Shown: positions 9,042 to 9,749 of the stretch, piece by piece
How positions within the stretch are numbered: position 1 is the stretch's first letter
Layout of the letters: every line of letters begins with the position of its first letter
From: an uncultured Actinomycetes bacterium
GTDB taxonomy: Bacteria; Actinomycetota; Acidimicrobiia; Spongiisociales; ZC4RG35
Assembly: GCA_937989945.1 (NCBI GenBank)
Contig: CALKIG010000114.1
Location: 3,330 to 67,329, forward strand
Length of the DNA: 64,000 nt
Reading direction: 5' to 3'
Program-made: the position numbers and the translations under genes
The notes under the pieces: model-generated
Told to the model about the DNA's origin: nothing
Databases searched by the model: none
What the model saw: only the letters and a program-made list of their open reading frames with translations

Positions 9042-9749
9042 CATATTGATCCCCATGTCGCCATGGGGTATGGACCATATCTTCACCCCTCGTCGTCGAT
9101 TACGAAGGAGGCTGGCGTATGGCCTCTGAGGATTCCAGGTATCGAGATCGCTGTTTGCGATTCATCTTCTCGGTGATCCTTGCGATCGTCTCGAGTCCCT
9201 CGCGGGACAGGTGACGTTCATCAGTCATCATCGAGATCACCTTGCCAAACAACTCGAAGTCGTTCCGCTTGGTGGTCATCAGTGGGCGTTCTTCGAAGAA
9301 CGGAATGATCCGCTCGACGAGGTCAGATCTTCGCTTCACCGAGTACCGCAAAAGGCGGTGGTGGTGATCGTCTGATCTGTTGTTCTGGATAACAGTTCCG
9401 CAGCCAAAGAAATCGATGAGATCTTCGAGTATGCGGCGTGAGGGCTCTGCCTGAGTGACCGAGAACTCGTGCTGGACTTGCCAGCCGAGTCGGCACCCGG
9501 AGTTCCTCACTACTGAGATCGAGAAGCAGCCTTCGCCGTCGACAAAGCCGACGACCCACTGCTCGAAACCTGGCCTTTCCTGCTGATTGACCGCACCGGA
9601 TAGATTTTCACTGCCCATGTCTCGACCCTACGGAGAGGGTGTGACATGAATGAGTACTACCGGATACTCGGTGTTTCCAGCATATAGCCAGCTGCTAACC
9701 GCGATGTTGCCATCACGGAGGGCAGTCACTCTTGCACGGAGAGTGGTCT
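9042..9749 (-). mobile_element. group I intron in 23S rRNA at the U1931 site, ORF-containing
   Basis: 708-nt insert between ...CGGUCCUAAGGU and AGCGAAAUUCC.... 5' exon ends in U and the insert ends in G (AUCAAUAUG). Core elements: P AUGCUGGAAA 9683..9674; Q AAUCAGCAGG 9588..9579; R UCAGAGGCCAUA 9129..9118; S AAGAUAUGGUCC 9083..9072. P3 is GCUGGC 9692..9687 / GCCAGC 9116..9111. Extra 5' hairpins lie at 9745..9727 and 9718..9699 (the latter with a GCAA tetraloop). Confidence 0.85.
9100..9618 (-). CDS. LAGLIDADG homing endonuclease, single-motif (homodimer-type), intron-encoded
   Basis: 172 aa. FEQWVVGFVDGEGCFSISV is a LAGLIDADG motif. Shares MGSEN..GA.NQQ, GCG(S/T)(I/V).QN, RR..L.ERIIPFF and other blocks with the 7729..8274 ORF. 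Confidence 0.9.
   Translation of the reverse strand: MGSENLSGAVNQQERPGFEQWVVGFVDGEGCFSISVVRNSGCRLGWQVQHEFSVTQAEPSRRILEDLIDFFGCGTVIQNNRSDDHHHRLLRYSVKRRSDLVERIIPFFEERPLMTTKRNDFELFGKVISMMTDERHLSREGLETIARITEKMNRKQRSRYLESSEAIRQPPS

Follow-up and report, generated by a model that had tools for sequence, protein, structure and literature searches.

What kind of element interrupts the 23S ribosomal RNA (rRNA) gene on contig CALKIG010000114.1 of an uncultured bacterium, and is it mobile? The contig was analysed over a stretch of 64,000 nucleotides (nt), referred to here as the window. On its minus strand a 708-nt insert (window 9749..9042), beginning AGACCACUCU and ending AUCAAUAUG, follows the nucleotide that corresponds to U1931 of the E. 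coli 23S rRNA, at the base of the functionally important helix 69-71 region. We conclude that the insert is very probably a mobile group I intron that codes for its own endonuclease. A preliminary description of the locus had proposed a group I intron with an open reading frame (ORF) inserted after U1931, and this is borne out by the exon junction, by homologous inserts at the same site, and by covariation in the predicted RNA fold. The insert and its flanks are as follows.

9750..9775, minus strand: 5' exon flank of the 23S rRNA, reading GGCCGUAACUAUAACGGUCCUAAGGU (9775..9750); E. coli 1906-1931, the last base being U1931.
9042..9749, minus strand: group I intron at position 1931 (L1931), 708 nt; assigned from homologues, covariation and a sub-threshold Rfam match at 9271..9051.
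9042..9042, minus strand: terminal G (omega-G) of the intron, a G in 60/61 homologous introns.
9021..9041, minus strand: 3' exon flank of the 23S rRNA, reading AGCGAAAUUCCUUGUCGGGUA (9041..9021); E. coli 1932 onward.

The numbering rests on E. coli K-12 rrlH, in which nt 1931 is the T of CCTAAGGT immediately before AGCG; CCTAAGGTAGCGAAATTCC starts at nt 1924 of that gene, so the T ahead of AGCG is 1931. Without the intron the 23S junction of the window consists of GGTCCTAAGGT followed by AGCGAAATTCC, and the spliced exon junction at U1931 reads ...CCUAAGGU-AGCGAAAU.... The 5' exon flank shows no variation among the related loci described below. The boundaries had been placed by the rule that the 5' exon ends in U and the intron in G, and that placement is upheld.

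Like the rest of its rRNA operon, the interrupted gene lies on the minus strand (16S 13741..12213, 23S from 11841, 5S 7265..7149). With both of its inserts removed, the 23S sequence aligns to E. coli rrlH 2-2904 with 76.7% identity and the alignment ends near window 7335, which gives a gene span of ~11841..7335 with two inserts (9749..9042 and 8369..7628). The Rfam match for the bacterial large subunit (LSU) rRNA covers 8329..11841, given as model positions 1-2925, and sets the 3' end ~1 kb early; the real 3' part, which corresponds to E. coli 2605-2904 and contains the sarcin-ricin loop, is found at 7627..~7335, past the second insert. Each 23S insert contains one copy of the R motif and one of the S motif of group I introns, and neither motif occurs anywhere else in the 64 kb.

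If the insert is a genuine intron it should be found elsewhere at the same place. A one-genome-per-species collection was scanned with the endonuclease encoded by the insert; 324 stretches encode a relative, and the best 80 were examined. By label these comprise 62 Actinomycetota (33 at the level of Acidimicrobiia), 9 members of the candidate phyla radiation (CPR), and a few other or doubtful assignments. An insert of 638-761 nt is present at the identical junction, between AAGGT and AGCGAAA, in 61 of the 80 loci. Additionally, more than 4000 metagenome relatives of the window endonuclease were found, and the exact window protein is present on three ENA contigs. The same insert at the same site in 61 of 80 loci, together with strong covariation in the RNA, is far beyond chance.

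These data also bear on whether intron DNA of foreign origin (CPR bacteria or organelles, for instance) was wrongly joined into the operon during assembly or binning. Metagenome rRNA operons are prone to mis-assembly, and some short related contigs do carry implausible labels (Bathyarchaeia for L072, Burkholderiales for L061). Against this, three contigs that were assembled independently (L001-L003) have exactly the same protein and junctions, and the same intron lies at the same site in megabase or chromosome-level assemblies (e.g. OY970227.1, OZ244195.1, and CAVVMG010000001.1). The intron has the G+C content of the exons (0.55), and intron divergence tracks exon divergence. The chance that the insert is such an artefact is therefore judged negligible.

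To describe the RNA, a structure comprising P1 to P9 with the P3/P7 pseudoknot (96 pairs) was drawn by hand from the relatives and tested on 35 full-length introns, each sharing 60-84% identity with the window copy, in a MAFFT alignment made from sequence only. RNAalifold, applied to the ORF-deleted alignment, recovered P1, the L1 hairpin, P2, P3, P6, P8, and P9 and mis-drew P4, P5, and P7 because of the P3/P7 pseudoknot, which is why the structure was drawn by hand. Its elements, in the order of the transcript, are listed here.

9748..9752, minus strand: 5' strand of P1, exon GGU plus intron AG, with the splice site between 9750 and 9749.
9727..9745, minus strand: P1 extension hairpin CACUCU/AGAGUG in L1; mean z = -2.35 over 56 homologues.
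9721..9725, minus strand: internal guide CUGCC, 3' strand of P1; UGCCC is conserved in all Actinomycetota-type introns.
9699..9718, minus strand: P2, CCGUGAUG-GCAA-CAUCGCGG, with a GNRA loop; 8/8 pairs vary on both sides, z = -3.9.
9687..9692, minus strand: 5' strand of P3, GCUGGC; 99.5% of alignment cells paired, compensatory changes in 4/6 pairs.
9677..9682, minus strand: 5' strand of P4, UGCUGG, within the P box; an invariant helix.
9590..9672, minus strand: extended P5 domain with P5 ACCG/CGGU, P5a CCGGUAG/CUA(U)CCGG, P5b, P5c, and the A-rich strand GUGAAAAU.
9581..9586, minus strand: 3' strand of P4, UCAGCA, within the Q box; from the drawn structure and pair counts.
9562..9580, minus strand: 5' strands of P6 and P6a, GGA ... 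CCAGGUUUCGAG; compensatory changes in 8/12 pairs of P6a.
9130..9146, minus strand: 3' strands of P6a and P6, CUCGAUACCUGG ... UCC; from the relatives' sequences and pair counts.
9118..9126, minus strand: 5' strand of P7, G(A)GGCCAUA with a bulged A, within the R box; 98.9% of cells paired, near-invariant.
9111..9116, minus strand: 3' strand of P3, GCCAGC; same pair-count test as the 5' strand.
9086..9109, minus strand: P8, UCCUUCGU/ACGAGGGG; a single hairpin in 55/56 homologues, z = -3.7.
9072..9079, minus strand: 3' strand of P7, UAUGGUCC, within the S box; from the drawn structure and pair counts.
9043..9071, minus strand: P9.0 AUA/UAU and P9 CCCCAUG-GCGA-CAUGGGG; compensatory changes in 3/3 pairs of P9.0 and 6/7 of P9, 99% of cells paired.

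Over the 35 introns, 87.0% of the cells in the proposed helices hold standard pairs (78.1% in shuffles), 55 of the 96 pairs show changes on both sides (35.1 +/- 2.5 in shuffles), and the covariation score is 0.281 (0.121 in shuffles); none of 500 shuffles reaches the observed value of any of the three measures. When the 3' partners were slid by 1-3 columns, pairing fell to 35-49% and covariation to 0.057-0.137. Most of the signal is carried by P2, P3, P5a, P6a, P9.0, and P9. Single-sequence folding between conserved anchors, which left out some unanchored segments, including P5b-c of the window copy itself and the guide sequence of one relative (L011), recovered the P1 extension, P2, P5b-c, and P8 as hairpins in all but a few homologues, the mean z being -2.35 to -3.9 relative to shuffles. 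In P5a all 7 pairs covary, the variable pair of P5 is A-U, C-G, or U-A, and the P5b-c segment gives z = -3.5. The 12-bp P6a (CCAGGUUUCGAG/CUCGAUACCUGG) continues P6 (GGA/UCC) and closes the loop L6 that holds the ORF. P7, which is predicted to be the guanosine-binding helix, crosses P3 and so forms the pseudoknot. By analogy with group I introns in general, the GNRA loops L2 and L9 and the A-rich strand of P5 may make tertiary contacts that stabilise the core. The comparative evidence thus identifies the insert as a group I intron with a complete predicted fold.

The commonest 23S inserts in non-CPR bacteria are of another kind, intervening sequences (PMC11270868), and the insert could on that ground be supposed to be one of these, removed by RNase III to leave a fragmented 23S rRNA. 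Intervening sequences are short stem-loops at other sites; the window insert has a pseudoknotted core, a terminal G, and an endonuclease gene, and we give this possibility almost no weight.

The strings and positions reported for the core in the preliminary description are all exact, including P3, the boxes P (9683..9674), Q (9588..9579), R (9129..9118), and S (9083..9072), and P9 (9068..9051), as are the two 5' hairpins at 9745..9727 and 9718..9699. The excess of ~36 nt over the other 23S intron near the 5' end is likewise present (62 vs 26 nt ahead of CUAUAUGCUGG). The two hairpins had been called P2/P2.1-like. This holds for the second, which is P2; the first lies inside the P1 loop and is therefore a P1 extension, and there is no P2.1. 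As a side observation, the loop of this L1 hairpin (window 9731-9739) contains CGUGC in 38/62 introns and GUGC in 47/62, and the complementary GCACG occurs in the invariant 3' exon ~30 nt past the splice site (window ~9004-9008); the complementarity could be due to chance or could reflect an intron-exon contact.

The same description had found only a weak candidate for the guide sequence of P1. The region it pointed to is the right one, with GGU and AG on either side of the splice site (9752..9748) pairing to CUGCC (9725..9721), and the judgement "weak" is not upheld, as the pairing includes a covarying pair. Among the 35 introns the first two pairs are G-C in 35/35, the U.G wobble at the splice site is invariant (35/35), and the fourth pair is A-U in 31/35. 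The fifth, in which the guide pairs with the second nucleotide of the intron, is G-C in 23, A-U in 9, and U-A in 1.

Is the protein encoded by the insert a homing endonuclease? The reading frame is located as follows.

9100..9618, minus strand: ORF of 172 amino acids (aa), a single-domain LAGLIDADG endonuclease; the only long ORF in the insert.

The protein matches Pfam LAGLIDADG_1 (PF00961) over residues 23-127 with 80.9 bits (cut-off 23.1), and it aligns to each half of the two-domain enzymes of the I-OnuI family in the PDB, at up to E = 2e-46 over residues 14-155. Across 25 homologues the motif GFVDGEG is invariant, and within VVGFVDGEGCF the residues D27, G28, E29, and G30 do not vary; from what is known of I-CreI and I-OnuI, we take E29 to be the acidic metal-binding, catalytic residue that closes the LAGLIDADG helix. 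The ratio of nonsynonymous to synonymous substitutions (dN/dS) is 0.2-0.3 over the central 130 codons, with dS ~1 and near saturation; five relatives were used for it (L007, L008, L016, L009, and L012), and three were left out because they were in the wrong frame (L004, L038, and L023). The start codon occupies the same column in the alignment, as ATG in 26/35 sequences and GTG in 7/35.

Both ends of the reading frame are also ribozyme. The start codon lies inside the 3' strand of P5b, and the first ~19 codons also form P5b', P5a', P5', P4' (AAU CAG CAG, encoding N-Q-Q), and P6. The last ~15 codons also form P6', P7 (UCA GAG GCC AUA, encoding S-E-A-I), P3', and P8, and the stop codon UAA (9102..9100) is within P8. 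The LAGLIDADG core fold (~residues 19-155) coincides with the part of the ORF that is outside the helices (codons 20-157, loop L6). In that L6-only part third codon positions are clearly less conserved than first and second ones, the mean consensus frequency at positions 1, 2, and 3 being 0.77, 0.80, and 0.61. Where the ORF overlaps the core, third positions vary about as little as the other two: the corresponding values are 0.87, 0.89, and 0.90 at the N-terminal end, and 0.94, 0.91, and 0.82 at the C-terminal end. Such a pattern marks a genuine protein gene in which both ends are under constraint from the RNA as well. Overlap of an ORF with the core has already been described for cyanobacterial rRNA introns (PMC1995217).

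It is conceivable that the intron splices and that its ORF no longer encodes an active nuclease, being instead a maturase or a gene in early decay, so that the element is immobile. Inheritance appears mainly vertical, the start codon is buried in P5b with no clear ribosome-binding site seen in the window sequence, and some relatives have truncated ORFs (105 aa in L026, 137 aa in L082) or a short intron (638 nt in L021). Furthermore, some LAGLIDADG proteins have maturase activity (PMC11270868), and purifying selection alone cannot tell a nuclease from a maturase. On the other side, E29 of GFVDGEG is the same in all 25 homologues, as are many further residues, dN/dS is low, and a homologue, I-ShaI, is an active nuclease on exactly this target sequence. 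An inactive or repurposed protein is accordingly considered unlikely, and an active nuclease is preferred. The shortened or interrupted ORFs, which also include one with a longest ORF of 83 aa (L038), fit either decay of the endonuclease gene in some lineages or assembly frameshifts.

The link to I-ShaI is the closest one to a characterized enzyme. In CPR bacteria, 23S inserts with a LAGLIDADG_1 ORF are found at positions 1917, 1931, 1952, 2593, 2604, and 2657, sites named 23IS6-8 and 12-14, and I-ShaI, which is encoded in a 691-nt insert at 23IS7, cleaves the DNA of its insertion site and forms dimers (PMC11270868). That 23IS7 is position 1931 follows from the order of the listed sites and is confirmed by the I-ShaI substrates (...TTCTAAGGTAGCGAAG...; Table S6 of the same study). 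A second, 60-bp substrate cut by I-ShaI comes from Ca. Kazanbacteria ('Kazan'; PMC11270868, Table S6), and its sequence GGCGGCCGTAACTATAACGGTCCTAAGGTAGCGAAATTCCTTGTCGGGTAAGTTCCGAC is base for base the exon junction of the window without the intron. The window endonuclease and I-ShaI are 35% identical over 164 aa (E = 5e-36). VNQQER is common to their N-terminal parts and their C-terminal tails are alike (LSESPETIR in I-ShaI, LESSEAIR in the window), and in the window these stretches are encoded by P4' and P7.

The CPR introns of I-ShaI and I-KazI at L1931 (PMC11270868) resemble the window intron in 23S site, in size (691 vs 708 nt), and in having a central single-domain LAGLIDADG_1 ORF, and four CPR loci (L071, L075, L078, and L083) share the sequences of P4, P6, and P7 with it. 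They differ at the 5' end: in the CPR copies the splice site is followed at once by a canonical 7-bp guide (GCCUUAG), and there is neither a P1 extension nor P2, whereas the window copy has a P1 of 3+2 bp (3 exon nt paired rather than 7), a covarying L1 hairpin, and a GNRA-looped P2. The hosts differ as well, AT-rich CPR bacteria in one case and an Actinomycetota-like genome of 62% G+C in the other. The host had been called a departure from the classical lineages. This is right with respect to Thermotoga, Simkania, and the cyanobacteria (PMC1995217) and has to be qualified by the fact that L1931 introns with LAGLIDADG genes are common in CPR bacteria (PMC11270868).

From these comparisons a familiar pathway can be proposed. 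The ribozyme would bind free guanosine in P7 and cleave after U1931, and P9.0 would then place the terminal G in the same site, so that the exons are ligated and a continuous 23S rRNA is restored. At the DNA level, a homodimer of the endonuclease would cut intron-less 23S rDNA at the U1931 site, and repair from an intron-carrying copy would spread the intron (homing).

Several points weigh against this interpretation. Splicing and cleavage by the window element are deduced from its sequence. The window copy reaches only 26.4 bits with the Rfam model Intron_gpI (RF00028; E = 9.5e-4, 9271..9051 only), under the gathering score of 50. The shuffle control ignores the relatedness of the introns, which is kept only by the slid control, and the invariant helices (P4, P7, and the base of P6) are uninformative on covariation. 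In the MAFFT alignment pair counts are low for the P1 extension (part of a helix at 72.5%), P5c (63%), and P8 (48%); we attribute the low counts of the P1 extension, P5b-c, and P8 to misalignment of length-variable hairpins by MAFFT, a view checked by the single-sequence folding. P1 consists of 3 exon bp and 2 intron bp only, and P10 of at most 2 pairs. The target site is a poor palindrome for a homodimer, with 5/11 matches at best. Finally, the 23S group I intron of Simkania, going by the title of Everett et al. 1999, is reportedly unspliced.

The low Rfam score is attributed to the 519-nt ORF, which splits the core in a way that the model cannot span. An intron at L1931 that naturally lacks an ORF (335 nt, L062:3098-3432) scores 51.2 bits. 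It is 71% identical to the window intron with its ORF deleted and shares with it P1, the L1 hairpin, P2, P3, and the 3' core; its P6 is closed by UUCG. The match to a group I model is thus obtained for this orthologue and, at the gathering score, not for the window copy. Two further features of the locus may be recorded: by its exon-based boundary the ORF-less intron has a terminal C, not G, and it adjoins another, endonuclease-carrying intron a few nt upstream in helix 69.

The short P1 and P10 and the precedent at the same site in Simkania raise the question of whether the insert keeps a group I fold and nevertheless stays, unspliced, in the mature 23S rRNA. The splice-site U.G, the adjacent guide pair, P9.0, and the terminal G (60/61) are conserved or covary in 35 diverged copies, which would not be expected of an inert insert, and the site itself lies in the functionally important helix 69-71 region. 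Retention in the mature rRNA is thus disfavoured and we regard it as very unlikely. With conserved and covarying splicing elements, in contrast to what the Simkania title reports, the window intron would be expected to splice.

How does the window intron compare with the other members of its site? L1931 introns of Thermotoga are 698-700 nt long with an endonuclease of 162 aa, those of Synechococcus C1 and C9 are 666-675 nt with 162-167 aa, and that of Simkania negevensis is 654 nt with 143 aa (PMC1995217, Table 1). By their description, the Thermotoga and Synechococcus introns are like the window intron in site, size range, and a single-motif LAGLIDADG gene, and also in an ORF that lies in a peripheral loop and reaches into the ribozyme core, a complex P5, and an IC1-type P7; the Simkania intron is alike in site and element class (PMC1995217). 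The cyanobacterial L1917 and L1931 introns have no P2 (PMC1995217), whereas the window intron has P2 and a P1 extension and so represents a structural variant; absence of P2 is a descriptive trait of some L1931 members, not a criterion of the family. The Thermotoga introns are reportedly active in self-splicing, to judge from the title of Nesbo and Doolittle 2003.

The second intron of the same 23S gene (742 nt, window 8369..7628, minus strand) is inserted after U2604 and has a LAGLIDADG ORF at 8274..7729. Site 2604 is also listed for CPR bacteria (PMC11270868). The two introns are alike in having the ORF in L6 and starting in P5b', in near-identical P4-P6 and P7, and in exact R and S boxes. 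The second has a canonical P1 (ACAGU/GCUGU), no P2, no P1 extension, and extra hairpins after P9, and it scores 41.3 bits with Rfam Intron_gpI, again under 50. The endonucleases of the two introns share only 40% identity, and the G+C content at third codon positions (GC3) is 0.54 in the gene of the second vs 0.73 in that of the L1931 intron.

Multiple introns were also seen among the relatives. Two or three pairs of R and S core motifs lie within the fetched part of the 23S gene in 27 of the 80 related loci (e.g. L011, L013, L018, L028, L035, L055, and L060, as well as L037, L050, and L062). Several Actinomycetota metagenome-assembled genomes (MAGs) have the same pair as the window, L1931 plus L2604, the S boxes lying ~1350 nt apart. 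Other loci have an extra intron ~750 nt upstream, possibly at L1917, and three (L005, L025, and L039) have one ~20 nt downstream that is similar to L1951.

What is the host, and how did it come by the intron? The 23S exons of the window are 92-93% identical to those of relatives that carry the submitter labels Acidimicrobiia (L021, L007, and L006), Actinomycetota (L005), and Acidobacteriota (L004 and L038). Relative to E. coli, the first exon has ~70 extra nt near 1402-1413 (window ~10275-10350) and ~80 extra nt near 287-290 (window ~11470-11555), both window ranges being approximate because they were converted from positions in the spliced sequence; the first of these segments resembles the 23S insertion characteristic of Actinobacteria. 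The host is probably a member of Actinomycetota, in or near Acidimicrobiia, an assignment that is probable rather than certain, since Acidobacteriota is the label on two of the nearest relatives. Submitter labels conflict with the rRNA at several loci. The two Acidobacteriota-labelled loci have 23S sequences 92% identical to those of the window and of Acidimicrobiia-labelled MAGs, two further loci (L042 and L069) have labels at odds with rRNA similarity, and the contigs labelled Bathyarchaeia and Burkholderiales are only 1.5-1.9 kb long and probably mis-binned.

Intron and exon distances are correlated over 47 loci (Pearson r = 0.74, Spearman 0.56; 1081 non-independent pairs), and no near-identical introns were found in distant hosts among the 47 loci compared. 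The intron and the 23S exons have the same G+C content, as noted above, and GC3 of the endonuclease gene (0.73) is as high as expected at 62% G+C, the comparison being with genome G+C only. The L1931 element therefore looks like a long-term resident of this lineage that has been inherited mainly by vertical descent.

The mechanism proposed here is not new; the intron is a known kind of mobile element with a new host range, uncultured Actinomycetota. A literature search, in which subscription journals were poorly covered, found no report of group I introns in the 23S genes of Actinobacteria or Acidimicrobiia, and rRNA introns of non-CPR bacteria have been described as rare (PMC1995217, PMC11270868). 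We tentatively propose, at slightly less than even confidence, that uncultured Acidimicrobiia and other Actinomycetota are a large, free-living, non-CPR group in which endonuclease-coding 23S introns are common, often multiple, and mostly vertically inherited, and in which the L1931 lineage gained a P1 extension and a GNRA-looped P2. If true, this would contradict the usual view that, among non-CPR bacteria, only a few thermophiles and intracellular pathogens have rRNA introns. The Rfam gathering threshold misses both introns and the LSU match ends ~1 kb early, and rRNA genes would therefore be mis-annotated in these lineages; surveys by polymerase chain reaction or probes across 1931 or 2604 would fail or give oversized products. 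The family would also provide a deep set of natural variants in which a ribozyme core and a reading frame share nucleotides, suited as well to studying how introns acquire peripheral elements (the P1 extension and P2 being examples) and whether a homing endonuclease gene can be maintained under purifying selection and largely vertical descent. Additionally, it would constitute a source of single-domain LAGLIDADG enzymes whose 23S target is conserved universally.

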